26,112 nt of DNA from Campylobacterota bacterium. GTDB taxonomy: Bacteria > Campylobacterota > Campylobacteria > Campylobacterales > Sulfurimonadaceae. Below, one piece after another: positions 242 through 14,080 of this stretch (position 1 is its first letter; every line of letters starts with the position of its first letter). Below the pieces are notes generated by a model. It did no database searches. It was not told the origin of the DNA and saw nothing but the letters and a program-made list of their open reading frames with translations. The stretch covers positions 1-26,112 of the forward strand of contig JAYEGD010000290.1 of assembly GCA_034658915.1 (NCBI GenBank), written 5' to 3'. Both the position numbers and the translations under genes were made by a program.

Positions 242-1693
242 TCAATGAAGCCTCTTGACCTCTTTGTCCAACTTTCCAGCTTTTAATTTTGCTAAATAGC
301 TATCTAACTCTTTTTTTACGCCTGAGCTTAATATAAAGAGTCCTAAAATGTTTGGCAGTGCCATGGCTAAAATCAGATAAAAACTAAAATCTACCATTAT
401 ATCTGTACTCACAATTGAAGCAATCATAGCTAAACCTAAAAAGATTAACTTGTAAATAAGTGAGTATTTTGAGCCAAAAAGATATACCCATGCACGCTCA
501 CCATAGTATGACCATGAAATCATCGTACTAAATGCAAAAAGCACAATAGATATTGACAAAATAGTAGGAAACCACCAAACAACACTACCATACGCAGCAG
601 CAGTTAATGCAGCTCCTTGTTTAGCAGCGATTAACTCTCCAAAACCATTAATAGGGTCATGGACACCTGTAATTATGATTACAAGTGCAGTCATTGTACA
701 AACAACAACAGTGTCAATAAAAGGCTCATACAGTGCAACCATACCTTGAGAAACTGGATGCTTTACTTTAGCAGGTGCATGAGCAACAGCAGATGAACCA
801 AGCCCAGCTTCACTAGAAAAAACTGCTCGCTGAAACCCTTGAACAATCACTCCAACAATTCCACCCTCAACTGCGTGTGGTGCAAATGCTTCACTAAAAA
901 TCAATCCAAACGCATGAGGAATCAGATCATAGTTTGAACCCAAAATCCATAATGATGCGCCAATGTATATTACAACCATTGATGGGACAACTTTTGCAGT
1001 CACGGTCGCAATTCTCTTTACGCCACCAATAATTACAGCACCCACAATAACTGCTAATCCCATTCCAAATACAAGTGGATTTGTCTCAAAAAAACTCACC
1101 TGTTGTTGTACTACACCTAACGCTTGAGATACTTGAAAGGTGTTTCCACCTCCAATTGCTCCACCAATCATTAAAAATGCGAATACAACTGCTAAAACTT
1201 TTCCAAATTTAGCGTAACCTTTTTGAGCCAAACCCTTTGAGAGGTACTCCATAGGACCACCCATAACAGAGCCATCTTTTAAAAACTCACGATGCTGCAG
1301 TGAGAGAGTAACCTCTGTAAACTTTAGACTCATACCTAAAAAACCAGCAATTATCATCCAAAATGTAGCCCCTGCCCCACCAATTGAGACAGCTAGTGCA
1401 ACACCCGCAATATTTCCAAGCCCAACAGTAGCAGACAGAGCAGTCGTAAGTGCAGCGAAAGGTTCAATTTCGCCTCTATCATCTTTAGTTCTGAAACGCC
1501 CTCTTATAACCTCATAACTATGCTTAAACATTCTAAGGTTAATAAACCTCATCAATATAGTTAAATAGAGACCTCCTAAAATTAGCCATGCTACTAAAAA
1601 TGGAACTTTCATCTCTCCACCAAAACCTAACAAAATGTCAAAAAACAAAATTGCACCTAAAAAATCATTAATACCTATAAACAGTTCATTCAT
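242..1693 (-). CDS. agcS: Sodium:alanine (alanine/glycine:cation) symporter, AGCS family
   Basis: 483-aa polytopic membrane protein; glycine-rich TM segments and overall architecture typical of the AGCS family (recognised from sequence, not a database search). Confidence 0.8.
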   Translation of the reverse strand: MNELFIGINDFLGAILFFDILLGFGGEMKVPFLVAWLILGGLYLTILMRFINLRMFKHSYEVIRGRFRTKDDRGEIEPFAALTTALSATVGLGNIAGVALAVSIGGAGATFWMIIAGFLGMSLKFTEVTLSLQHREFLKDGSVMGGPMEYLSKGLAQKGYAKFGKVLAVVFAFLMIGGAIGGGNTFQVSQALGVVQQQVSFFETNPLVFGMGLAVIVGAVIIGGVKRIATVTAKVVPSMVVIYIGASLWILGSNYDLIPHAFGLIFSEAFAPHAVEGGIVGVIVQGFQRAVFSSEAGLGSSAVAHAPAKVKHPVSQGMVALYEPFIDTVVVCTMTALVIIITGVHDPINGFGELIAAKQGAALTAAAYGSVVWWFPTILSISIVLFAFSTMISWSYYGERAWVYLFGSKYSLIYKLIFLGLAMIASIVSTDIMVDFSFYLILAMALPNILGLFILSSGVKKELDSYLAKLKAGKLDKEVKRLH

Positions 1694-1695
1694 AC

Positions 1696-2592
1696 TTACT
1701 CTCCTGGACCCTTAACTCTTTTGGCTTTTTTAAACAAAATATCACTCGGACTTCTCTTTAACTCTAATACCGTCTCATTAATGTTTAGCGTTAAAGAGCT
1801 CAACTCATCTAAAAGTTCATCAAGTTTATTGATAGAGTTTTGACTAATATCTTTAACACTGTAGTCACCTCTTTTAATGCTCTTCTCTAAAATCTTTGCA
1901 ACTTTTGAGACATTTTTAGACGCTTCGCTCATATCTTCAAATGTAACACTAGCATCTTTTTCAAACTTTTTTCCATCTTCTATTAGTGACTCAATACTAC
2001 TCATATTTGCTTTTAAAGTTGCAGTAATACTTTGAATATTCTCAATAGAAGCATCTATGTTTTCAATGTTTTTACTACTTAATAGCAAATTAATTTTACC
2101 TAATGAATCAATCAATTTATTAGAAATTTCAGATAGCACCTCATCAACTCTAACAAGTGTTGATGGAGTTGATTTTATGTAAGCAATTTTATCTTTACAT
2201 GTAATCAAAGTAGGCGACTTGTTAGAGCCACCATGAAGCTCAATAAATGCCAAACCAGTCATTCCATAAAATTTCAAACTCGCCAACGTATCTTCTTTAA
2301 TAGGCACAGACTCATTTACATGTAAAAGAAGTAAAACCTCTTTAGTGTTTGATGGATTAATCTGCATAGAATCTACACTACCAACATTTACACCCATGTA
2401 CTTAACACTAGCTTGTGGATTAAGACCCGAAACAGACTCACTCATAACAACATAGTAACTTTTTAAACCACTCTCGTCTCCATATTTACTCAACCAAAAA
2501 ATGAAGCCAATTAGTGCAAAACTAATTAAAACAAAAAATGTTCCAACCATCACATATGATGCTCTGCTATCCATTAATGCCTCTCTTTCCAT
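1696..2592 (-). CDS. mlaD: MlaD-like MCE-domain periplasmic substrate-binding component of an Mla-type ABC transporter
   Basis: N-terminal single TM helix followed by an MCE-like domain; in operon with MlaF- and MlaE-like genes; C-terminal coiled region. Confidence 0.7.
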   Translation of the reverse strand: MEREALMDSRASYVMVGTFFVLISFALIGFIFWLSKYGDESGLKSYYVVMSESVSGLNPQASVKYMGVNVGSVDSMQINPSNTKEVLLLLHVNESVPIKEDTLASLKFYGMTGLAFIELHGGSNKSPTLITCKDKIAYIKSTPSTLVRVDEVLSEISNKLIDSLGKINLLLSSKNIENIDASIENIQSITATLKANMSSIESLIEDGKKFEKDASVTFEDMSEASKNVSKVAKILEKSIKRGDYSVKDISQNSINKLDELLDELSSLTLNINETVLELKRSPSDILFKKAKRVKGPGE

Positions 2593-3319
2593 AAAAAAAA
2601 CTTTTTATTATAGGATGATTACACTTCATAACCTCTTGCAAAGTTCCTTGCGCAACCACTCTAGCCTCTGCTAAAAGTGCAAACCTATCTACACTATTTT
2701 TAATTGAGTCTAAGTCGTGAGTAATCATAACAATACTCAATCCCAGCAAATCTCTCAACTCTACAATAAGTTCATCAAACATATTAGCACTTATGGGGTC
2801 TAACCCTGATGTTGGCTCATCTAAAAAAAGAAGCTGAGGATCCATGCTTAAAGCTCTAGCTAACCCTGCTCTTTTTTTCATTCCACCACTCAACTGCGCT
2901 GGATGCATACTCTTTACATGTAGAGGAAGTCCTACTAAATCAAGTTTTGCATCTACAATTTTATCTATTAAAGAGTTCTCAATATTTGTGTACTCTTTTA
3001 GTGGGAGTGCAATATTTTGTGCAACATTTAAAGATGAATAGAGCGCACCTGATTGAAACAAAACTCCCCAATTTCTTCTTAAAAAATCGCCATCACTAAT
3101 GCTAATGTTTGAGAGTTTTTTACCTAAAATTGTAATGTTGCCACTGCTGGGTTTTTGCAACATTATCATCTCTCTTAGAAGTGTAGATTTACCACTTCCA
3201 CTTCCACCCAGCAGTGCATAAATTTCGCCTCTATTCACACTCAAGCTAAGACCATTATGAACTACATTTTCACCAAATGATGTAACAATATTTTGAACAT
3301 CAACTACAACTTCACTCAT
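2567..3319 (-). CDS. mlaF: ABC transporter ATP-binding protein (MlaF-like)
   Basis: Walker A GGSGSGKSTLLR, ABC signature LSGGMKKRAGLARAL, Walker B LLFLDEPTSGLD. Confidence 0.9.
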   Translation of the reverse strand: MSEVVVDVQNIVTSFGENVVHNGLSLSVNRGEIYALLGGSGSGKSTLLREMIMLQKPSSGNITILGKKLSNISISDGDFLRRNWGVLFQSGALYSSLNVAQNIALPLKEYTNIENSLIDKIVDAKLDLVGLPLHVKSMHPAQLSGGMKKRAGLARALSMDPQLLFLDEPTSGLDPISANMFDELIVELRDLLGLSIVMITHDLDSIKNSVDRFALLAEARVVAQGTLQEVMKCNHPIIKSFFYGKRGING

Positions 3320-4431
3320 AAATTCAACTTCGTTAAAATAACTGAAAAAATAGCGTCACACAAAATAACTAAAAAAATTGAATTAACAACGCTAATGGTA
3401 GTGTAACGCCCAATACTCTCACTACTAGAAGATACTTGAAATCCTCTAAAACAGCTAATGGAAGCAATTAGTAGTGCAAAAAATGGTGCTTTAATTAACC
3501 CAATGTAAAAGTGTCTAATATTTAAAACATCTTGAGTTCTATCTAAAAACTCACTAAAAGTGATGTTTAGTTGTGCCTTTGCAACAACCATACCGCCAAA
3601 TATTCCGACAATATCTGCAACAAAAATAAGCAACACCATAGCAACCATAAGTGCAATAATACGAGGAAGAACTAAAAATCTGTACGGATTAAACCCCATA
3701 GCTTTCATAGCATCAATCTCTTCAGTTAGCTTCATAACGCCCAACTGAGCTGTGTAAGCTGAACCACTTCTTCCAGCTACAACCACCGCAGTCATAAGAG
3801 GTGCCAACTCTCTTGTTAAAGAGATAGTTATCATATCTACAACAAACATATTGGCGCCTAGTTTCTCTAACTGAACTGCACCTTGAAATGTTGTTACAAC
3901 ACCAATTAAGAATGATGTAACAAAAATGATGGGAAGTGCTTTTACTCCTGCGTCTTGAATGTGTCTAAAAATGGAGTTAAATCTTATGGAGCTAGGGTGT
4001 AAAATGTAGTAGATGAGCGCAAAAACACTCTCCCCAGTAAAGTTTAAAAAAAGTTTTAACTCATCTTTAATACCTACAAGATATTTGCCAATATAGTAAA
4101 ATAGGCTCTCTTTTTTAGTTACCTTAACTTCACTATTTTGCACACTGCTTAGTAGCTTGTAAAGCTCTAAATGTCTCTTTGTAGCACCCTTTACATGTAG
4201 TGCAATATTTGCTTTTTTCAATCTCTCATAAAACTCAATAAAAAGTAAAATAGATGAAGAGTCAAACTCCTTTACATCTTCTACATGTAGAACTACCTCT
4301 TTGATGTTTTTGAGTGAAATCTTTTTCAACTCTTTAGAGATTTCTCCCACTCTTTGTACTTTACAATTATCACTAACACTAATGTTAAGTCTCTCATCTT
4401 CTACATGTAGAGTAATCAATTTTACTTCCAC
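3316..4431 (-). CDS. mlaE: MlaE-like ABC permease with an N-terminal ~110-aa STAS/MlaB-like extension
   Basis: C-terminal ~260 aa polytopic permease typical of MlaE; N-terminal soluble region with an internal LHVED duplication; start overlaps the upstream gene. Confidence 0.7.
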   Translation of the reverse strand: MEVKLITLHVEDERLNISVSDNCKVQRVGEISKELKKISLKNIKEVVLHVEDVKEFDSSSILLFIEFYERLKKANIALHVKGATKRHLELYKLLSSVQNSEVKVTKKESLFYYIGKYLVGIKDELKLFLNFTGESVFALIYYILHPSSIRFNSIFRHIQDAGVKALPIIFVTSFLIGVVTTFQGAVQLEKLGANMFVVDMITISLTRELAPLMTAVVVAGRSGSAYTAQLGVMKLTEEIDAMKAMGFNPYRFLVLPRIIALMVAMVLLIFVADIVGIFGGMVVAKAQLNITFSEFLDRTQDVLNIRHFYIGLIKAPFFALLIASISCFRGFQVSSSSESIGRYTTISVVNSIFLVILCDAIFSVILTKLNL

Positions 4432-5675
4432 ATAGAGTTATTAATAAGTAAATGATACGCCAAATTTTTAAAAAATTTTCCAAAAGAGACAGATGTAAGC
4501 TTCTCAGTATTAATAGTAAAATTCAGACAAACAACATCTTGACTCACACACTGCGCACTATATGGTACAGCTGAGTTAAAAACTGCATATGCATCTACAA
4601 CAAACTCATTTGCACCAATATATTTTTCAATATCACGGCTAAAAAGCCTCACTTCACCAGAGATAAGCAGCAAAAGATGAGAGAAGTTTGTATCTTCAAC
4701 AACAATAAAATCTCCAGATCTATATTTTTTAAAAATTGCACTCTCTATGGAGTTCTCTAAATTCTTCTCATTAATATCTAAAAAGAGTCTCAACTTTTTT
4801 TGTAAAATAACCTTTGTAGGAGTAGTTGAAGCTACACTACTTTGTGCTAAATGTCTATCTGATGCATGTTTAAAGCAGTACTCTTTAGCTCCATTAATTC
4901 TCATTTTAAGAGCGTCATCAACAACAATTTTTGTAACAATATTTTTTGAGTAATACTCTAAAAATTTACAAATATTAAGTTCACCTCTAACACCAGAACG
5001 CAATAAAAAGTTCTCTATTAATTTAGAAGATTTTGCACGAGAAAACATCTCTTTATTGTACTCATAAGCATAAGTGTCTAAAATTTGAAAAAACTTACTC
5101 TCAATAGAGGATTTAATCTCCTCAAAAATATCAAAAAAAGCCCCTTTATGGTAATCATAAAAGTTATTTACATATTTAACAAGCTCTTTAATTGATTTGT
5201 CTAAAATATCCCTTTTATCAAGCACGTCGGCGTGTCGTGTGCGAAGATATTTTATGTTCTCTTCATTAGGATTTTGAATTTTTTTGTAAAGAGCATCTTC
5301 TTGTTTGTTTAACTCAATAAGTTCAAACTCTTCAGCTTCAAGCAACTCCACTTTGTCCATAAAGCTCTCTTGCTTTTTTAAAAAACTGTTTTCATAAAGG
5401 GTAAGAGAGTTTTTTGAACGCATTTTAAAGTTAAAATATTTGTCATAAATAGAGTTTAACTTAACAAAGGAGTCCTCTAACTCTTGAGTAATAATTCGCT
5501 CATCAATATTACGAAACAGCCCAGTTGCAGAACTTATGAGGTCTTTAAAAATAATATAGTGAAAATCTTCATCTGCTGAAGCAATACGTTCAAAAGAGTA
5601 GCTATCACTTACTAAAATATCATCTTTAAAATAGGTTACTATACTCTGCTTGTACTGTGAGGTTAACTTTGTCAT
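4422..5675 (-). CDS. Cyclic-nucleotide-binding-domain protein (C-terminal cNMP-binding/Crp-like domain)
   Basis: C-terminal segment GDFIVVEDTNFSHLLLLISGEVRLFS resembles a cNMP-binding beta-roll. The track ORF extends to 5801 but those codons overlap the tRNA, so the start was moved to the first Met after the tRNA (MTKLTSQYK). Confidence 0.5.
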   Translation of the reverse strand: MTKLTSQYKQSIVTYFKDDILVSDSYSFERIASADEDFHYIIFKDLISSATGLFRNIDERIITQELEDSFVKLNSIYDKYFNFKMRSKNSLTLYENSFLKKQESFMDKVELLEAEEFELIELNKQEDALYKKIQNPNEENIKYLRTRHADVLDKRDILDKSIKELVKYVNNFYDYHKGAFFDIFEEIKSSIESKFFQILDTYAYEYNKEMFSRAKSSKLIENFLLRSGVRGELNICKFLEYYSKNIVTKIVVDDALKMRINGAKEYCFKHASDRHLAQSSVASTTPTKVILQKKLRLFLDINEKNLENSIESAIFKKYRSGDFIVVEDTNFSHLLLLISGEVRLFSRDIEKYIGANEFVVDAYAVFNSAVPYSAQCVSQDVVCLNFTINTEKLTSVSFGKFFKNLAYHLLINNSMWK

Positions 5676-5748
5676 AAACAGTATAGTACCAAAAAAAGTG
5701 TTAAAATATGAGGAGTTAAAGGATAAAGTATATAAAAAAGTAGTATGA

Positions 5749-5823
5749 TGGTGCTCAATACTGGACTTGAACCAGTGACTTTTTCCTTGTCGAGGAAACA
5801 CTCTACCACTGAGTTAATCGAGC
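5749..5823 (-). tRNA. tRNA-Val (anticodon GAC), 75 nt including encoded CCA
   Basis: Manual cloverleaf: acceptor GCTCGAT/ATTGAGC (one G-U), D-stem ACTC/GAGT with AGTGGTA loop, anticodon stem TTTCC/GGAAA with loop TCGACAA, T-arm ACTGG-TTCAAGT-CCAGT, 3' ACCA. Position 33 is C rather than the usual U. Confidence 0.7.
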
Positions 5824-5969: not shown

Positions 5970-6962
5970 ATGGAACATATAATGAAAAAAGAATCTACTC
6001 AAACAAAGGATGGGAAAGCATTTGAATATTCTATTCTAAAAGAATTTAAAGAAAAACTAGGAAGTTCAACGACAGTAGAGGTTTTAGAAAACAATGCATT
6101 ATTAACAGCACAAAAACACTTTAATTCTTTTAAAAAAATAGAACAAGCAGAATTTCTACTTTATGCAAGTTTTGCAGTTAACTTTTTAATTGATATAGAA
6201 CCAAGATTATCTAACAGCTTTGATGAAGATGATATTTTACAATTAGAAATATTAACATATGACAAGGGACAAGATGGTGATGTGAGAGATGTTGTTGCTA
6301 TAAGATTATTACAAAAATGGGAAATAGGGATTTCAGCTAAAAATAATCATAAAGCTATAAAACACTCAAGACTTTCTAATAAAATAGATTTTGGAGAAAA
6401 ATGGCTTGGAATAAAATCATCAACACAATATTTCGATGAAATAAGACCAATATTTAACTCTCTTGAAAAAATGAGAACAGAAAGTAATAAAACTAAAACT
6501 TGGAAATCTTTAGGCGATTATCATCATACAGTATATATTCCTATATTAGAAGCCTTTAAAACAGAATTATTAAGAATATATAATACAAACCCTTCTCAAG
6601 TTGCTTCTACTTTAGTAGAGTATCTAATAGGAACTAAAGATTTTTATAAAGTAATTAAAAGTAGAAACAATATTGAAATTCAAGCATATAATTTGCACGG
6701 CACTTTAAATTTACCTTTTAAAGATATTAATCCTAAATTTAATACACCAAAAGTTAATTTACCAACTGAAATTACCAACATATCGTATAAAAAAGACACA
6801 CTAACAACTTTAATCGTTGAATTAAATAACGATTGGACACTATCTTTTCGAATTCATAATGCAAGTTCTAGAATTGAACCATCATTAAAATTTGATATAA
6901 ATTTACTAAAAGCACCTAATTCATTATTTACCAATAAACTTTCTATTGGAGGAGAAGAGTAA
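5970..6962 (+). CDS. Putative Type II restriction endonuclease, cognate partner of the downstream m5C methyltransferase
   Basis: 330-aa ORF whose stop overlaps the methyltransferase ATG by 1 nt (gagtaATGaat), with a GGAGGA ribosome-binding site for the downstream gene inside its 3' end; no recognisable family motifs beyond a possible D..E.K-like patch (DVRDVVAI...EIGISAK); assignment rests on position. Confidence 0.5.
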   Translation: MEHIMKKESTQTKDGKAFEYSILKEFKEKLGSSTTVEVLENNALLTAQKHFNSFKKIEQAEFLLYASFAVNFLIDIEPRLSNSFDEDDILQLEILTYDKGQDGDVRDVVAIRLLQKWEIGISAKNNHKAIKHSRLSNKIDFGEKWLGIKSSTQYFDEIRPIFNSLEKMRTESNKTKTWKSLGDYHHTVYIPILEAFKTELLRIYNTNPSQVASTLVEYLIGTKDFYKVIKSRNNIEIQAYNLHGTLNLPFKDINPKFNTPKVNLPTEITNISYKKDTLTTLIVELNNDWTLSFRIHNASSRIEPSLKFDINLLKAPNSLFTNKLSIGGEE

Positions 6963-8047
6963 TGAATATAATATCTCTGTTTTCTGGTGCTGGAGGATTG
7001 GATTTAGGTTTTGAAAAAGCAGGTTTTAAAACTATTTGGGCGAATGAATATGACAAAGAAATTTGGCAAACATTTGAAAAAAATTTTCCTGATACCATTT
7101 TAGATAGAAGAAGTATATCAAAAATAGCATCAGATGAAATACCAGAAACATTAGGACTTATCGGTGGACCTCCATGTCAAAGTTGGAGTGAAGCAGGAAA
7201 ATCAAGAGGGATAGAAGACCATAGGGGACAACTATTTTTTGAGTTTATAAGAGTTTTAAGAGATAAAAAACCTCTATTTTTCTTAGCTGAAAATGTTTCA
7301 GGAATGTTAGCTCCAAGACATGAAGATGCATTGGAAAATATAAAAAACCACTTTATCGATAGTGGATACACTTTATCGTTTAAACTCATGAATGCTCATG
7401 ATTATAAAGTGCCTCAAGATAGAAAAAGGATATTTTTTATTGGATTTAGAAATGACCTAAATATCACTTTTAAATTTCCAAAAGAGTTTGAAAAAAAACG
7501 ATTTTTAAAAGATGTTATTTCTGATTTAAAAGATAATGTACTTCCTGCTAAAGAAAAAAATTATACAAATGCTGATAAGTGCAAAATAGAAAATCATGAA
7601 TTTATGATTGGTGGATTTTCATCAATGTTTATGTCTAGAAATCGAGTTAGAGGTTGGGATGAACCATCATTTACAATTCAAGCGGGTGGAAGACATGCAC
7701 CACTACATCCACAAGCACCTAAGATGCAACTTGTAGAGCAAAATAAAAGAATATTTGTTCCACATAGTGAACATCTGTATAGAAGACTTAGTGTTAGAGA
7801 GTGTGCTAGAATACAAACATTCCCAGATAGTCATAAATTCTATTATAAAAATGTGACTGCTGGATATAAAATGGTTGGTAATGCTGTACCTCCTAACCTC
7901 GCATACTACTTAGCAAAAAAAATAATTGAAGACTTACAAAGTATTCATCCTAACAAAACAGTGGAACTCACAAATATACCTATCGCTGGTAATTCTAATT
8001 ATTACGAAAATAGCTATATTCCTGAAATTCAAGCTGTGTCAGGCTAG
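6962..8047 (+). CDS. DNA (cytosine-5)-methyltransferase, M.HaeIII-like (predicted GGCC specificity)
   Basis: Motif I FSGAGGLDLGF, motif IV GGPPCQSWSEAG, motif VI ENV, C-terminal GNAVPPNLA. From memory the sequence is near-collinear with M.HaeIII (MNLISLFSGAGGLDLGF...GGPPCQSWSEGG...FMSRNRVR.W.EP.FT.QA.GR...LHPQAP...HLYRRL.VRECAR.Q.FPD...GYKM.GNAVP.NLAY). Confidence 0.9.
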   Translation: MNIISLFSGAGGLDLGFEKAGFKTIWANEYDKEIWQTFEKNFPDTILDRRSISKIASDEIPETLGLIGGPPCQSWSEAGKSRGIEDHRGQLFFEFIRVLRDKKPLFFLAENVSGMLAPRHEDALENIKNHFIDSGYTLSFKLMNAHDYKVPQDRKRIFFIGFRNDLNITFKFPKEFEKKRFLKDVISDLKDNVLPAKEKNYTNADKCKIENHEFMIGGFSSMFMSRNRVRGWDEPSFTIQAGGRHAPLHPQAPKMQLVEQNKRIFVPHSEHLYRRLSVRECARIQTFPDSHKFYYKNVTAGYKMVGNAVPPNLAYYLAKKIIEDLQSIHPNKTVELTNIPIAGNSNYYENSYIPEIQAVSG

Positions 8048-8200
8048 AAGGTACATTTGTAGTTCAACACAACCGTTATGTTCACACCAAGAAAATCAAT
8101 GAGAGAATCATTTAAAAGTAAAATTATAGAAGTTTGCAATAAGAAAATTGAAACTAGAGGTTCAAATGTTTCATAAAAAGCATATAGAAGAACATTTTAT

Positions 8201-8288
8201 CTCTCGAAAACATTGTTTTCGTAGCTTTAAGGGGTGGTAGGGACAAAATTGTCCCTACTACTAAAACGGACGGAGGCGTTTTAGTGCA
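8201..8288 (+). repeat. Copy 2 of the three-hairpin repeat element: HP1 cgaaaac-att-gttttcg, HP2 gtagggacaa-aa-ttgtccctac (perfect), HP3 actaaaacg-gacggagg-cgttttagt
   Basis: Aligns with copies 1 and 3; aaatg/cattt in other copies becomes aaacg/cgttt here (compensatory); sits between the convergent 3' ends of the methyltransferase and the HExxH gene. Confidence 0.8.
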
Positions 8289-8308
8289 TAACATCAGTTA
8301 TTAAATCT

Positions 8309-9259
8309 CTAAGCTTGATTTACGTTAGCATTATGTAAAGCATCATCAAGCTCTTGATCAGAAATCTTTTTCCATGTACTTAAGTCAATTCCAAGTGTAA
8401 CATCTCTTCTTAAATATTTAGCATTCTCTTTTTCTTGGTGTTCTAGTAACTCTAGCACATCCTTGATATCAATCATAGCACCATCATTTCTTGGCATAAC
8501 TCCATAATCTGCTGGGTCGCTAAAGTCTCCTGTTAGGGCTCTGATTAATGTATCACTCTCTACAATATTGAAGTCATTAATAGCCTCATTTATATCAACT
8601 TTTATTCCCATCTCATCGAGTAATTTCAGTTGAGTTCTGAATGCTACATCTTCCCACTCTACCGCTCTTTGAGCGTTTAATAAAGACAAACCAGAATAGA
8701 TTTTTTTATCATTTTTGTTGTATGGATTCTTAATATCAAAAGATAAAGCACCAAACCTCTTGCTATCTCCATATCGTGACTGCATAAGAGTTTCTGTGAG
8801 CGCATGAGCTAGTTCATGAACTCCTCTCCATACTTTTGTATATTCTACATCATTAAATGCACCATGAGCAGAGTAAGGGTCATAAACAAAAATATTACCT
8901 TTTGCATAGCCATTCTTTTTAAGGCTTCTACTAGATGGCTGTTTAATTATTGTCTTCTCTCCAATTTTTCTACCAATATTGTCTGGATTCGTAGAAATAT
9001 ATTCAATATTGTATCCATACTTTTTAGCTAATTCATCTATGTAGTTTGGATTTTCAACCAGCTTACTTAATACGATAGACTTTAGCATATCAGCACTATT
9101 TTTGTTTGAGAACATCTCAAAAGTTCTACTAAATATAGCTTTGCACAAAGTATCAAAAGATTTTTTATCTCCCTGAGATGCCTTTTGTACAAGTTCAGCA
9201 GGCGCAGCAGATGTATTTATATGATGGCTAGTTGCATTAGTGTCGTTTGCTTTATTCAT
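8309..9259 (-). CDS. HExxH zinc-metalloprotease-like protein
   Basis: 316 aa with a single HELAH motif at residues 148-152 (WRGVHELAHALTE); GGAG ribosome-binding site; family not assignable from memory. Confidence 0.5.
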   Translation of the reverse strand: MNKANDTNATSHHINTSAAPAELVQKASQGDKKSFDTLCKAIFSRTFEMFSNKNSADMLKSIVLSKLVENPNYIDELAKKYGYNIEYISTNPDNIGRKIGEKTIIKQPSSRSLKKNGYAKGNIFVYDPYSAHGAFNDVEYTKVWRGVHELAHALTETLMQSRYGDSKRFGALSFDIKNPYNKNDKKIYSGLSLLNAQRAVEWEDVAFRTQLKLLDEMGIKVDINEAINDFNIVESDTLIRALTGDFSDPADYGVMPRNDGAMIDIKDVLELLEHQEKENAKYLRRDVTLGIDLSTWKKISDQELDDALHNANVNQA

Positions 9260-9275
9260 ATTGGCTCCAAAAGTG

Positions 9276-9704
9276 TTAACTTATATCTTCTATTTTACTA
9301 CTTTTAAGTAAAACTTTTTTAGTTTGACATTCGATATATTCTAAAAAATGGTAACTGTTGTAAAAAATACTATACTGTTCATATTTCATACCAAGACTTA
9401 GTGCATCATTTTTACTGATTCTATAAACAATAAAGCTATCTTCTTTGTGCTCATCACACTTTCCAACTGTACCCTCATATTCATATTTCAAAGCCTTTAA
9501 ATCATCTTCTAACTTATGGTTGAGTATCTTGTTTTCTGCCTCTGAAAGTTCTCTATTCATAGGGTTCCATGCTGTAATAATAGCAAATGGTATATCTAAA
9601 GATAGACTCTCTTCTAACTCTTCAATACCAACCCAAATTTCTTCTGATTTATTCTTAAATAGAAATTTATTGCGTCTGTAAATATCTATGAGTTGCACAG
9701 TCAT
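9276..9704 (-). CDS. Hypothetical 142-aa protein (possibly DUF3293-like; motif FAIITAWNP)
   Basis: ORF 16 nt upstream of and co-oriented with the HExxH gene; domain guess is from memory only and weak. Confidence 0.4.
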   Translation of the reverse strand: MTVQLIDIYRRNKFLFKNKSEEIWVGIEELEESLSLDIPFAIITAWNPMNRELSEAENKILNHKLEDDLKALKYEYEGTVGKCDEHKEDSFIVYRISKNDALSLGMKYEQYSIFYNSYHFLEYIECQTKKVLLKSSKIEDIS

Positions 9705-9768
9705 TTAATACTCAACCACAACACAAAGCTTTTTTATAAACATCCATATCTTCTCTTTTTCCTACTGC

Positions 9769-9774
9769 TATAAT
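9769..9774 (+). promoter_or_regulatory. Candidate -10 box (tataat) for a plus-strand small transcript
   Basis: Perfect TATAAT about 60 nt upstream of an intrinsic terminator on the same strand; no protein-coding ORF between them. Confidence 0.3.
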
Positions 9775-9830
9775 GTAAATCATAACCTCGTCCTCAATAG
9801 TTTCATTCTATGGAGCGGTAAAAAGCTTTT

Positions 9831-9868
9831 AAAGGTCAAAGGATTAATTACCCTTTGACCTTTTTTTT
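9831..9868 (+). terminator. Rho-independent terminator: stem aaaggtcaaagg / cctttgaccttt, loop attaattac, followed by T8
   Basis: 9-12 bp inverted repeat followed by eight T on the plus strand; could also act weakly for the minus-strand ybeD operon. Confidence 0.6.
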
Positions 9869-9908
9869 GCCCTCCTAGAATATTTTAACCCATTTCCCAA
9901 CATCATTG

Positions 9909-9940
9909 TTATAGCAAAAGAACTATAAAACCATCTTTAT
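9909..9940 (+). repeat. Right copy of the 32-bp direct repeat (candidate attR), overlapping the last four codons and stop of the ybeD-like gene
   Basis: Identical to 5845-5876; its reverse complement reads aag atg gtt tta tag = K M V L stop of the 9923..10192 ORF. Confidence 0.9.
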
Positions 9941-10192
9941 GTTTTGATGTGCTTTTAGGGCTTCGTAGATGAAGTTTCTGTCATCTTCATTATGAACTAG
10001 TAGGTCTAAGTTCATACTTATGTACTTGCCGCTTCCACTTTTATTTGAGTGAGCTAGTTTATGCTCTCTTGTCTCAATTGCACTATGTATCGCTTTTTCA
10101 ATTGCCTCTTTCTCATAGCCTATTAGCTTGTAAGTCCAATTGCAAGGATACTCTAGCTCTAACTTCTCTTTACTATCGTTTATAACTTCCAC
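9923..10192 (-). CDS. YbeD/DUF493 (UPF0250) family protein
   Basis: 89-aa protein with the conserved [11 protein letters not shown] start typical of this family. Confidence 0.7.
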
Positions 10193-10637
10193 TTTTTCCT
10201 CCTACTTTTGACTCTAGTTGAATATCTGTAATTATCATTGACTTATCTATCGCTTTTATCATGTCATAGATTGTTAAAAGTCCAACACTTACACCTGTTA
10301 ATGCTTCCATCTCAACACCAGTTTGACCTGTAAGTTTTGCTGTTACAAATAGTTTAAAGCCATCTTCTAACTCTTTAACATCACAGTTTATACCACTTAA
10401 ATTAAGTGGATGACACATCGGAATCAGTTCACTTGTTTTTTTAGTTGCCATAATTGCTGCAACAATTGCAGTTTGTAAAACAGGACCTTTTTTTGATTTT
10501 TCATTAACAATTATGTCATACGCTTCACTGCTCATATGAATTTTGCCACTTGCAACTGCTACTCTTGTTGTCTCAGTTTTTTCACTAACATCAACCATTT
10601 TTGGTCTATCTTTTTCATCTAAATGTGTTAGACTCAT
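10173..10637 (-). CDS. moaC: Cyclic pyranopterin monophosphate synthase accessory protein MoaC
   Basis: 154 aa; conserved MoaC segments ([32 protein letters not shown]). Confidence 0.9.
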
Positions 10638-12281: not shown

Positions 12282-12962
12282 TTAATCTTTTCTCGAATTT
12301 TTTTCCGCTATTCCACTCATATTAAATCTTCTTGAAAGCTCTTGTTTTACTCTATCTGGAGAGATGTTTTTGTAGCCTAGAGCAACTAACATATGGTATG
12401 TTAAATCTGCTGCTTCATAAATCATCTCATCTTCATCACTATCTTTTAGAGCAAAACAGAACTCACCAGCCTCTTCAATAACTTTTTTCAAAATTGTGTT
12501 TTCACCTTTAGCAAAAAGTTTTGCAGTCCAAGATGAGTCTGGGTCTGCATTTTTACGCTCTAAAATCGTATGATAGAGTGTGTCAATAACGCCATACATA
12601 GCGTCAGTTTCAACCTCAACACTACTACATGTAGAGCCACTCTCAAGCTCTGTAAAAAAGCATGAACGCCTACCTGTATGACATGCAACACCATCTTGTG
12701 CAACTTTAATTAAAAGAGTGTCATTATCACAATCAATATTGAAAGACTTAATGTGTTGTAGATGGTTAGAGCTTTCACCCTTTTTCCAAATTCTCTGTTT
12801 TGAACGTGAAAAGTAGTGAGCTAGTTTTGTCTCTAAAGATAGCGTTAGAGCCTCTTTGTTCATGTAAGCCATCATTAAAACTTCAGAGTTTTCATAATCT
12901 TGCACAATAACAGGGAGAAGCTCGCACTTCTCCCAATCGACTCTATTTAAAATCTCTTCCAT
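12282..12962 (-). CDS. hisIE: Bifunctional phosphoribosyl-AMP cyclohydrolase / phosphoribosyl-ATP pyrophosphatase HisIE
   Basis: N-terminal HisI region (LPVIVQD...CHTGRRSCFF) and C-terminal HisE MazG-like region (LEEAGE...EAADLLYH-like). Confidence 0.85.
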   Translation of the reverse strand: MEEILNRVDWEKCELLPVIVQDYENSEVLMMAYMNKEALTLSLETKLAHYFSRSKQRIWKKGESSNHLQHIKSFNIDCDNDTLLIKVAQDGVACHTGRRSCFFTELESGSTCSSVEVETDAMYGVIDTLYHTILERKNADPDSSWTAKLFAKGENTILKKVIEEAGEFCFALKDSDEDEMIYEAADLTYHMLVALGYKNISPDRVKQELSRRFNMSGIAEKNSRKD

Positions 12963-14080
12963 TATTTAGAACTAACTCTTTTTTGAGCATCTTTTGTATC
13001 TACCCAAATGTTTGGAGTAGATCCACCAGGTGTTAAGAATATTTTTGCATCTTTATTAACTTTTAGAGCTTCATTAAACTTACCTTGAACATGAATTTGC
13101 TCTAAGTGTAGAAGTTTTTCAGTTAAAGATTTTGAAATTAAAAGGTTCGCTTTTGCTTGTGCATCTGCTTCAATAGTAATTGCATCTGCTGCACCTGTTG
13201 CTGCAATTTTAACTGCATTTGCTTTACCTTGCGCATCAGCTTCACGTTTTAGAGCCTCTTGTTTTGCACGTTGAACCTCTTGTTCTGCACGTTGAACCTC
13301 TTGTTTTGCAATTTGAACACGCTCTATTTGATCTTTTACTTTTGTAGGTAAAATTATTTCACGAAGTTGCACAGATTGTAAAATGGCAGGAGAGTTCTTT
13401 TGAGACTCAACACTTTGACTAATTCCATCATCAATCTGCTTTGCAATTGTGTTACGCATTGTAGGAAGTGACTCTGCATCATACTTACCAACAACATTTC
13501 TTACAACATCACGAACAACAGGACTAATGATTTTGTCTTCCCAGCTAAAGCCCCAATTTGAGATTGTTTGAGCTGCAAATTGTGAGTTAAGACGGTACTG
13601 AACAGTCAGCTCAATAGAGACAGGAAGACCACGTTTATCAAGAACTGTAATTGCAGGTTTTGCATTAATTCCATCACTTCCACCCATAGTAGAGCGCTCA
13701 ATTTTATTTACATAGTTAATAATACGTACTTTAGTATCTACTAAATATACTTTTTGAATTATTGGTACAATAAAGTGAAGACCAGGAAGTAAAGTATGCT
13801 CTTGGTACTTACCATTAGTTGCCAAAATACCACGCTCACCCTCTGTAATAATTACAAATGGTTTAGAGATGACTAAAAATAGAATTATTGCTAAAACAAA
13901 GTAGATAATTCCAGCTTTTCCACCACCAAAGTTAAAGTCTATCTTAGGCATATTAGGAGGAGTGAAGTTTCCACCACCACCGTTTCCACCGTTTCCACCG
14001 TTTCCACCACTTCCACCGCCAGAGCCACTTTTACTCTCTTTTTTCTTCTTGTTAAAATAATCATTCATATCTGTTGCCAA
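12962..14080 (-). CDS. SPFH/band-7 (prohibitin-like) membrane protein with a Gly/Asn-rich N-terminus
   Basis: N-terminal GGGSGGNGGNGGNGGGG, one TM helix, SPFH-like core, C-terminal coiled region containing the tandem repeat QEVQRAEQEVQRAKQEA. Confidence 0.7.
   Translation of the reverse strand: MATDMNDYFNKKKKESKSGSGGGSGGNGGNGGNGGGGNFTPPNMPKIDFNFGGGKAGIIYFVLAIILFLVISKPFVIITEGERGILATNGKYQEHTLLPGLHFIVPIIQKVYLVDTKVRIINYVNKIERSTMGGSDGINAKPAITVLDKRGLPVSIELTVQYRLNSQFAAQTISNWGFSWEDKIISPVVRDVVRNVVGKYDAESLPTMRNTIAKQIDDGISQSVESQKNSPAILQSVQLREIILPTKVKDQIERVQIAKQEVQRAEQEVQRAKQEALKREADAQGKANAVKIAATGAADAITIEADAQAKANLLISKSLTEKLLHLEQIHVQGKFNEALKVNKDAKIFLTPGGSTPNIWVDTKDAQKRVSSK

Follow-up and report, generated by a model that had tools for sequence, protein, structure and literature searches.

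Does a predicted metallopeptidase gene that lies directly beside a restriction-modification (R-M) system belong to the defenses of the cell, or does it descend from something that attacks the cell? The question is raised by a pair of genes in a 26,112-base stretch of DNA (hereafter, the window) that is the entire contig of a Campylobacterota metagenome-assembled genome (MAG). On the minus strand, a gene for a 142-residue protein (positions 9276-9704) is followed, after a gap of 16 nucleotides, by a gene for a 316-residue protein (8309-9259). The original prediction, made from the letters of the window, described both open reading frames (ORFs) correctly, together with the HELAH motif at residues 148-152 of the larger protein and its lack of a signal peptide, and proposed that the two proteins form a protease-based defense or toxin-immunity module. 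We favor, with moderate confidence, a different answer: the two genes correspond to a phage-type module, here unfused and standing alone, that joins a protein resembling S-adenosylmethionine (SAM) lyases to a zincin-type peptidase, and that works in mobile-element counter-defense or host takeover.

The 142-residue protein is a predicted relative of SAM lyases

The smaller protein scores 60.7 bits with the Pfam DUF3293 model (PF11697), whose gathering threshold is 25 (E = 2.2e-16), and its residues 43-113 cover the full model from 1 to 73. As originally predicted, it is acidic, if mildly so (isoelectric point 5.05, with 26 Asp and Glu residues against 19 Lys and Arg), and it carries an ITAWNP motif at residues 43-48. 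This motif, encoded at 9561-9578 (minus strand), is the DUF3293 signature that closes the first core strand. Its residues T44, A45, N47 and P48 are conserved in at least 90% of 71 members of the family, and profile-profile alignment places the motif against the SAFR of the T3 SAMase.

When the DUF3293 profile was compared by hhalign with that of the T3 SAMase and three Pfam S-AdoMet_lyase ORFs, the match reached a probability of 96.6% (E = 4.8e-10) over 101 columns. Several proteins match PF11697 and the S-AdoMet_lyase model, PF23780, over one and the same stretch. The AlphaFold (AF2) model of the 142-residue protein, built with the 71-sequence alignment, has a pLDDT (predicted local distance difference test) of 92.5, and its predicted fold is ferredoxin-like, of the PII type, and superposable on solved SAM lyases. 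The sole invariant residues among the 71 sequences are E88 and Q110, and G81 is conserved in at least 90% of them. These three residues (9375-9464, minus strand; G81 at 9462-9464, E88 at 9441-9443 and Q110 at 9375-9377) form a predicted triad of the SAM-lyase type and align with G55, E68 and Q94 of the T3 enzyme, with E67 in place of E68 in one of the two alignments. Strict conservation across the SAM lyases is limited to Gly56, Glu69 and Gln104 (numbered as in Svi3-3); the E69Q substitution nearly eliminates the activity of Svi3-3, and E68Q in the T3 enzyme abolishes in vivo rescue while leaving some activity in vitro (PMC7877911). A SAM-AMP lyase has only the Glu and the Gln in common with SAM lyase (PMC12255297).

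We are thus highly confident, from profile and model comparison, that DUF3293 belongs to the SAM-lyase superfamily, as a divergent branch that has kept the active-site triad. The window protein would then be an enzyme whose substrate is SAM or a sulfonium compound derived from it; that free SAM itself is the substrate is possible, though we doubt it somewhat more than we believe it.

SAM lyases release homoserine lactone. In two Vibrio loci (L166/L167, 5001-10399), the DUF3293 gene precedes an RraA-like gene by 24 nucleotides, and thrA-thrB-thrC is about 1.4 kb away, a homoserine and threonine neighborhood that may be meaningful or coincidental.

The 316-residue protein is a predicted zincin-type peptidase

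The larger protein contains one HExxH motif only, HELAH, and inspection of its sequence shows a hydrophilic N-terminus with no stretch resembling a signal peptide. It has no match in Pfam (E <= 1), NCBIfam, PADLOC or PHROGs, and we rejected a Lit-like, SprT-like or other housekeeping peptidase on this basis. The resemblance to the Lit protease of e14 that had been suggested for it did not hold up, as no homology to Peptidase_U49 was detected.

A word-indexed search gave nine relatives, and the profile built from them seeded an exhaustive HMMER search that returned 315 clusters (at 50% identity) with E <= 1e-3, 298 of them with E <= 1e-10. Among the best 150 representatives, most matches are one module within proteins of 1,000-5,000 residues, mainly of 2,000-5,000. 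Two such giant proteins also hold InPase, ART-PolyVal, DUF7178 and LPD38, domains that typify polyvalent proteins; InPase, LPD38 and 2H are phage-type-specific (Iyer et al. 2017, PMC5512222). Scans of IMG/VR yielded 17 and 55 peptidase loci (72), many on viral contigs of 130-240 kb, and the peptidase domain in viral loci is usually part of an ORF of 450 to more than 3,800 residues; giant ORFs of 1,600 to over 3,800 residues are among them. The gene at 8309-9259 is predicted to encode a zincin-like metallopeptidase that lacks a curated model and is of a type common in phage polyvalent proteins. Comparison of the peptidase profiles with PDB sequences returned noise only (TFIIS at E = 0.12 and low-complexity matches), tblastn of cultured phages gave no peptidase match, and a scan of 185,579 representative genomes with a single narrow peptide pattern found no relative.

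The AF2 model of the 316-residue protein has a pLDDT of 89.8 and a predicted template-modeling score (pTM) of 0.88. In this model the HELAH residues (codons 8804-8818, minus strand), which are the predicted zinc ligands and catalytic base, lie within a helix spanning residues 138-163, and E201-W202-E203 lies within the next long helix, 193-216, with E203 as the predicted third zinc ligand (W202-E203 codons, 8651-8656, minus strand). Both motifs are invariant in 144 diverse homologs, where H148, E149, H152 and E203 are conserved without exception (100%), as are P128, W144, R145, R168, W202, R240 and F246. In the zincin arrangement, two His residues and a downstream Glu bind the metal and the Glu of the motif acts as the base (PMC5512222). 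An invariant HExxH motif and a downstream Glu on consecutive predicted helices fit this arrangement, and the protein is very probably a zinc metallopeptidase, as the original prediction had it. The narrower claim, that it is enzymatically active as a zincin-type peptidase like those of polyvalent proteins, we consider likely. Neither motif of the pair is a chance occurrence, given the conservation of the HELAH His and Glu residues at 100% (n = 144) and of ITAWNP at 90% or more (n = 71).

Kinship with ArdC of R388 was rejected (hhalign probability 0.1-0.2% with both the 9-sequence and the 144-sequence profiles), and membership in Pfam MPTase-PolyVal was rejected for want of a Pfam match at E <= 1. 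On the strength of these two results we file the protein as one that would work like a metallopeptidase (MPTase) of polyvalent proteins but falls outside Pfam MPTase-PolyVal.

DUF3293 and the peptidase are recurrently coupled

Local hidden Markov model searches found DUF3293 fused to the peptidase in 26 of 156 peptidase-domain representatives, with domain E-values down to 1e-25, and DUF3293 is N-terminal to the peptidase in 22 of these 26 fusions, which is the gene order of the window pair. The smallest fusions, of 478-513 residues, are essentially the two window proteins end to end. The loci fetched for the analysis hold 79 peptidase ORFs in all, of which 31 are fusions with DUF3293 and another 7 have it next to them; by comparison, 617 kb of unrelated bacterial loci contained no DUF3293 match. 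The pair therefore does co-occur elsewhere, which the original prediction had proposed as a check on itself, and no homology to a housekeeping or SprT-like peptidase accompanies it. DUF3293 is also the top Pfam partner in mid-sized members of the peptidase family (15 of 55); the further partners are nucleotide- or SAM-directed enzymes, namely InPase, NUDIX, 2H phosphoesterase, S-AdoMet lyase and GGDEF. A cluster look-up of the fusion proteins gave no names or taxonomy, all of them being metagenomic.

The association extends to peptidases that stand alone. Four of the five for which context was available, the window included, lie beside a DUF3293 or SAM-lyase gene. On one phage contig (L001), the peptidase gene is convergent with two tandem S-AdoMet_lyase paralogs (8958-10302, minus strand), and on another contig an S-AdoMet_lyase gene lies 1.3 kb from a stand-alone peptidase. 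An alphaproteobacterial chromosome (L005) carries the pair in reversed order with a gap of 10 nucleotides. Genomes syntenic with it hold DUF3293 without the peptidase, so the peptidase was gained beside a resident DUF3293 gene, or lost elsewhere. On these grounds of sequence and gene order, we think it highly probable that DUF3293 and the peptidase are functionally coupled.

Several of these loci have further features of note. The paralogs of the phage contig L001 have 211 and 235 residues, the first with a faint DUF3293 match as well, and the contig also holds T4 gp2, GH108 lysin, ThyX and RNR genes. In alphaproteobacterial chromosomes (L168-L170, 4058-5417), DUF3293 is conserved between GltB/DUF6494 and a glutathione S-transferase (GST) gene, with a Peptidase_C13 gene in divergent orientation to it; in L005 (5170-6529), the zincin peptidase is directly upstream of DUF3293, at the place where these loci hold Peptidase_C13. 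A metagenomic protein of 2,024 residues (P0137) has the peptidase at 100-248, a DUF3293/S-AdoMet_lyase domain at about 1250-1330 and a 2H/LigT phosphoesterase at 1746-1864. Other members of the peptidase family add a NUDIX, InPase, GGDEF or PI3/PI4-kinase-like domain, and such partners suggest that the module is part of a nucleotide- and cofactor-directed toolkit. On a viral contig (L065), a split DUF3293/peptidase pair is preceded, at a distance of about 3 kb, by a gene for a 797-residue protein combining mCpol (minimal CRISPR polymerase) with a GNAT acetyltransferase (1581-3974, plus strand).

The module or its parts are found in phages and mobile elements

The closest phage homolog of the window peptidase (56% identity) sits in a podovirus-like late module composed of genes for a head-tail adaptor, capsid and tail protein, two genes without a family, the peptidase gene itself, and a gene for a 922-residue internal virion protein. 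One DUF3293-peptidase fusion is encoded about 640 nucleotides upstream of a tail-sheath gene. PHROG and Pfam annotation of the genes that flank the fusions was mostly uninformative. In the cultured Flavobacterium phage Elemovirus (NC_055853; L171, 5053-16137, plus strand), gp18 is a protein of 3,694 residues annotated in the record as 'structural protein', with DUF3293 at residues 1312-1397 (E = 1e-20) and its sole HExxH motif (HEIFH, at 1543) about 150 residues further downstream, an arrangement kept in 68 Elemovirus genomes. The HExxH region of gp18 has no detectable relation to the window peptidase family, and we treat it as a parallel only.

Phage or mobile-element contigs harbor the closest relatives of the window DUF3293 protein (47-62% identity). 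One of these relatives, an extended DUF3293 protein of 277 residues that is 58% identical to that of the window, is encoded between PriCT_1 primase and resolvase genes (L025, 8001-16583, and L026), in an integrase-bearing element whose other genes include those for GmrSD, a complete type I R-M system and an AAA_13 ATPase. In another case, a phage contig with terminase, tubulin-like and AAA genes (L027, 6265-8360, and L028), a HipA-like kinase gene is found two genes downstream of DUF3293.

Genomic setting and predicted transcription of the window pair

Adjoining the pair, at 5970-8047 on the plus strand, are genes for a HaeIII-type endonuclease (PF09556, E = 3e-96) and a C5 cytosine methyltransferase (PF00145, E = 8e-97), whose ORFs overlap stop to start at 6962. 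The SAM-lyase-like gene is 1.2 kb from this SAM-dependent methyltransferase, whose partner endonuclease works without SAM. To the left of the R-M genes are a Na:alanine symporter, an Mla-type ABC (ATP-binding cassette) transporter and a 459-residue protein without a family match; to the right of the pair are DUF493/HP0495, MoaC, MobA, DUF2393 and HisIE. MoaC-DUF493 is kept in about 18 metagenomic loci (MoaC 63-79% identical). Synteny ends directly after DUF493 in these loci, and both the pair and the R-M genes are missing from every one of them, which marks the four genes as accessory here.

The four genes are not alike in composition. The G+C content at third codon positions is 0.118 and 0.163 in the R-M genes against a host background of about 0.25, which marks them as a recent import; the values for the pair, 0.243 and 0.224, are host-like. 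The proposal that the pair sits inside a horizontally acquired R-M island was thus right about its abutting an accessory R-M system, but foreign composition is confined to the R-M genes and gives no support to a single joint acquisition of all four genes. The 459-residue protein, encoded at 4422-5801 on the minus strand, heads the Mla transporter operon; it has no Pfam match and one partial relative, in a Sulfurimonas MAG, among 185,579 representative genomes. With this one partial match for the left-flanking gene, the exact borders of the island cannot be set. Elsewhere in the window, a 372-residue protein (12962-14080, minus strand) has a low-complexity N-terminus rich in Gly, Asn and Ser (GSGGGSGGNGGNGGNGGGG) followed by a hydrophobic stretch.

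The original description of the pair as co-transcribed fits its layout, in which the genes share a strand, are 16 nucleotides apart and are flanked by hairpins. GGAG precedes the ATG of the 316-residue gene by 8 nucleotides, a good spacing for a ribosome-binding site. On the 5' side of the pair, a 14-bp hairpin (9831-9863, minus strand) about 60 nucleotides past the DUF493 stop codon is the likely end of the upstream moaC-DUF493 transcript, and the segment 9815-9875 folds with -23.7 kcal/mol (z = -5.3). On the 3' side, two adjoining hairpins (8237-8282, no strand assigned) between the convergent methyltransferase and peptidase genes are likely transcript ends; the segment 8225-8295 folds with -23.2 kcal/mol (z = -6.0) and lacks a T-run. 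A scan with a terminator consensus calls neither hairpin. A consensus scan for promoters gave a weak promoter-like site 5' of the pair (TTTAAA, 17 nucleotides, TAGAAT; 9805-9833, minus strand), and the number of such sites in the region is not above that in shuffled sequences. No Rfam family matched in 7900-10300. With strong hairpins on both sides, the pair looks like a transcription unit of its own.

Proposed function and alternatives

Phages usually carry the module inside polyvalent proteins, multi-enzyme proteins that are part of the virion and enter the host together with the DNA in order to disable it. There, the DUF3293 part may cleave SAM to methylthioadenosine and homoserine lactone, or may cleave a SAM-derived signal such as SAM-AMP. 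Loss of SAM would starve SAM-dependent defenses (type I and type III restriction, BREX), and cleavage of a signal would quench signaling. Such a role is established for the T3 SAMase, which counters type I restriction and BREX. The peptidase might cut the polyprotein, freeing the lyase to form the oligomer that builds its active site, and might also, or instead, cleave host targets. The MPTases of polyvalent proteins have been proposed to process the delivered polyprotein or to attack host proteins (PMC5512222). The active sites of SAM lyases sit at subunit interfaces (PMC7877911, PMC12255297), from which we infer that release from the polyprotein could permit assembly and activation. A counter-defense role of the module in phages is, in our judgment, somewhat favored by the evidence. 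In the Campylobacterota bacterium, the pair would be an accessory operon derived from a mobile element, with its own transcription unit beside a recently imported HaeIII-type R-M system, perhaps a mobile-element cassette that was domesticated or left behind.

An updated form of the original proposal would make the pair a defense module, for instance one in which an infection-activated peptidase and a SAM-depleting enzyme bring about abortive infection, or one in which the peptidase, like Lit, cleaves a protein essential to the host or the phage. In favor of this, the pair is accessory and has an R-M system as its direct neighbor; a 58%-identical DUF3293 occurs in an element with GmrSD and type I R-M; stand-alone pairs with intact catalytic residues occur in two unrelated bacterial chromosomes; and SAM-AMP lyases work inside a defense system (PMC12255297). 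However, the DUF3293 gene of that element belongs to its primase-resolvase backbone and lies outside the defense cargo, the peptidase family is found chiefly on viral contigs (72 loci) and mostly in polyvalent or other large proteins, and the partners are fused into one polypeptide in phages. Among the 5,027 models of PADLOC, none matched the 316-residue protein and the 142-residue protein drew only RTasSLATT, at noise level (E = 0.018, 12.8 bits); a Lit/Peptidase_U49 match was likewise lacking. The smaller protein is probably no immunity or antitoxin-like protein but a SAM-lyase homolog that keeps the catalytic triad, and partners that are often a single polypeptide are hard to square with a toxin/immunity relationship. 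What survives of the proposal is the setting of phage-host conflict and the linkage of the two genes; the evidence points to an offensive, counter-defense origin rather than an abortive-infection module, and we found no positive support for a defense role of the pair beyond its adjacency to the R-M system. We consider a defense module unlikely.

Two other explanations seem to us more improbable still. DUF3293 could be a housekeeping or metabolic protein, either a cellular enzyme or a PII-like ligand binder for SAM or a by-product, with the peptidase as an accessory regulator and the phage versions borrowed from cells. This would suit the host-like composition of the window pair and the single-copy chromosomal DUF3293 genes of Vibrio (by RraA-like and thrABC genes) and alphaproteobacteria (by a GST gene), on contigs of 0.1-4.7 Mb. 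It is harder to reconcile with the absence of the pair from this locus in some 18 related genomes, with the narrow-pattern scan, which found no peptidase relative in the 185,579 representative genomes, and with closest DUF3293 relatives (47-62% identity) that are borne by phages or mobile elements; we also found no SAM-salvage genes near the pair. The remaining explanation, about as improbable, is that of an inert remnant of a degraded prophage or other element that is neither expressed nor under selection. The family is otherwise chiefly viral, and the two genes stand alone between housekeeping operons on a 26-kb contig in which no other mobile-element genes were found. Yet both ORFs are full length and keep all of the invariant residues, ribosome-binding-site spacing is good and hairpins bound the unit, the host-like codons suggest a long stay without decay, and another phylum has an independent pair that is likewise intact.

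The reading that we prefer, a stand-alone copy of a phage-type counter-defense module, has several observations to answer as well. The activities of both proteins are predictions from sequence and models. The 142-residue protein does not reach the Pfam S-AdoMet_lyase model (PF23780), a plain hmmsearch of the PDB with the DUF3293 profile missed the SAM lyases, which were retrieved only by profile-profile and structure comparison, the single-sequence hhalign match to the T3 SAMase is weak (E = 0.035), and the aligned Glu differs by a register shift of one residue between the two T3 alignments. DUF3293 is also a stable chromosomal gene beside housekeeping genes in Vibrio and alphaproteobacteria, so the family is not purely a phage weapon. 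Near the pair on the window contig there is no integrase, tRNA-linked boundary or phage gene, and the codon composition of the pair is that of the host. In split pairs, the release of DUF3293 requires no peptidase. Finally, a lyase of free SAM beside a SAM-dependent methyltransferase and a SAM-independent endonuclease would be a hazard to the cell. All of these weigh against our interpretation.

A bolder form of the same interpretation is that DUF3293 and the peptidase are a widespread two-component phage weapon in which the peptidase frees or activates, after injection, a SAM-lyase-type enzyme directed at SAM or at an immune signal made from it, such as SAM-AMP, and that bacteria, this Campylobacterota lineage and an alphaproteobacterium among them, have captured and repurposed stand-alone copies of it. 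Bacterial reuse might then take the form of protease-gated SAM depletion, as abortive infection or as control of an R-M system. We put this forward as a speculative idea that is rather unlikely to be right in full.

Significance

Zincin peptidases in polyvalent proteins and SAM lyases of phages are each already known. What appears to be undescribed is the placement of DUF3293 in the SAM-lyase superfamily, the peptidase family of the window, and the recurrent coupling of the two, with the proviso that InterPro clans may already link both Pfam families. Our literature search found no paper that names DUF3293 and none that links SAM lyase domains with polyvalent proteins.

If these assignments are correct, DUF3293, a large Pfam family, gains a predicted reaction of the SAM-lyase type with E88 and Q110 as key residues, and a peptidase family of at least 315 clusters at 50% identity, so far without a curated model, becomes a processing or effector peptidase of polyvalent proteins. 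SAM depletion would be much commoner in phages than supposed, pre-made in the virion and coupled to proteolysis. A SAM-lyase-like gene near an R-M methyltransferase would raise the question of what prevents it from doing damage, or whether it has an influence on the R-M system next to it. For annotation, there is a caution as well: an HExxH gene beside an R-M system need not be a defense gene.

Comparison with known systems

Like the window peptidase, Lit of prophage e14 (Peptidase_U49) has a single HExxH motif, about 300 residues and a place in an accessory region of a bacterial chromosome. The two differ in that no homology is detectable between them (no Pfam match at E <= 1 and no PADLOC match), in that the family of the window peptidase is phage-borne and modular, and in that its partner is an enzyme homolog and probably neither a trigger nor an immunity protein. 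Elemovirus gp18 offers another parallel, with DUF3293 in a giant virion-annotated protein of a cultured phage and a domain order with HExxH like that of the fusions; it differs in its HExxH region, which has no detectable relation to the window peptidase, and its virion label comes from the record only.

With the MPTases of polyvalent proteins (MPTase-PolyVal and the C-terminal domain of ArdC; PMC5512222), the window peptidase shares a predicted helix bearing HExxH, the conserved Glu on the helix after it, apparently also a small predicted sheet and helix ahead of the catalytic helices, and occurrence within giant phage proteins together with InPase, ART-PolyVal, LPD38, 2H and NUDIX. It shares with them, too, the existence of solo forms in related elements, which PMC5512222 notes for many polyvalent domains. 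It is set apart by its own invariant residues (W144-R145, R168, W202, R240 and F246) and by an insert of about 30 residues between the two catalytic helices. A SAM-lyase-like association is not mentioned in PMC5512222, where 'SAM' occurs 0 times.

The SAM lyases of phages (T3 SAMase gp0.3, Svi3-3 and other members of PF23780) and the SAM-AMP lyases are the closest counterparts of the smaller protein. The differences are that the window protein belongs to Pfam DUF3293 and has no S-AdoMet_lyase match, that it has an additional N-terminal helix and beta-hairpin (residues 1-26) and the T-A-W-N-P motif, and that many DUF3293 members are stable on chromosomes. For the T3 SAMase, we know of no coupling to a peptidase. 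The likeness consists in profile-profile homology with the Gly, Glu and Gln residues in common, in the spread of the closest relatives of the window DUF3293 among phages and mobile elements, and in the fact that S-AdoMet_lyase genes are interchangeable with DUF3293 beside a peptidase of the window family.

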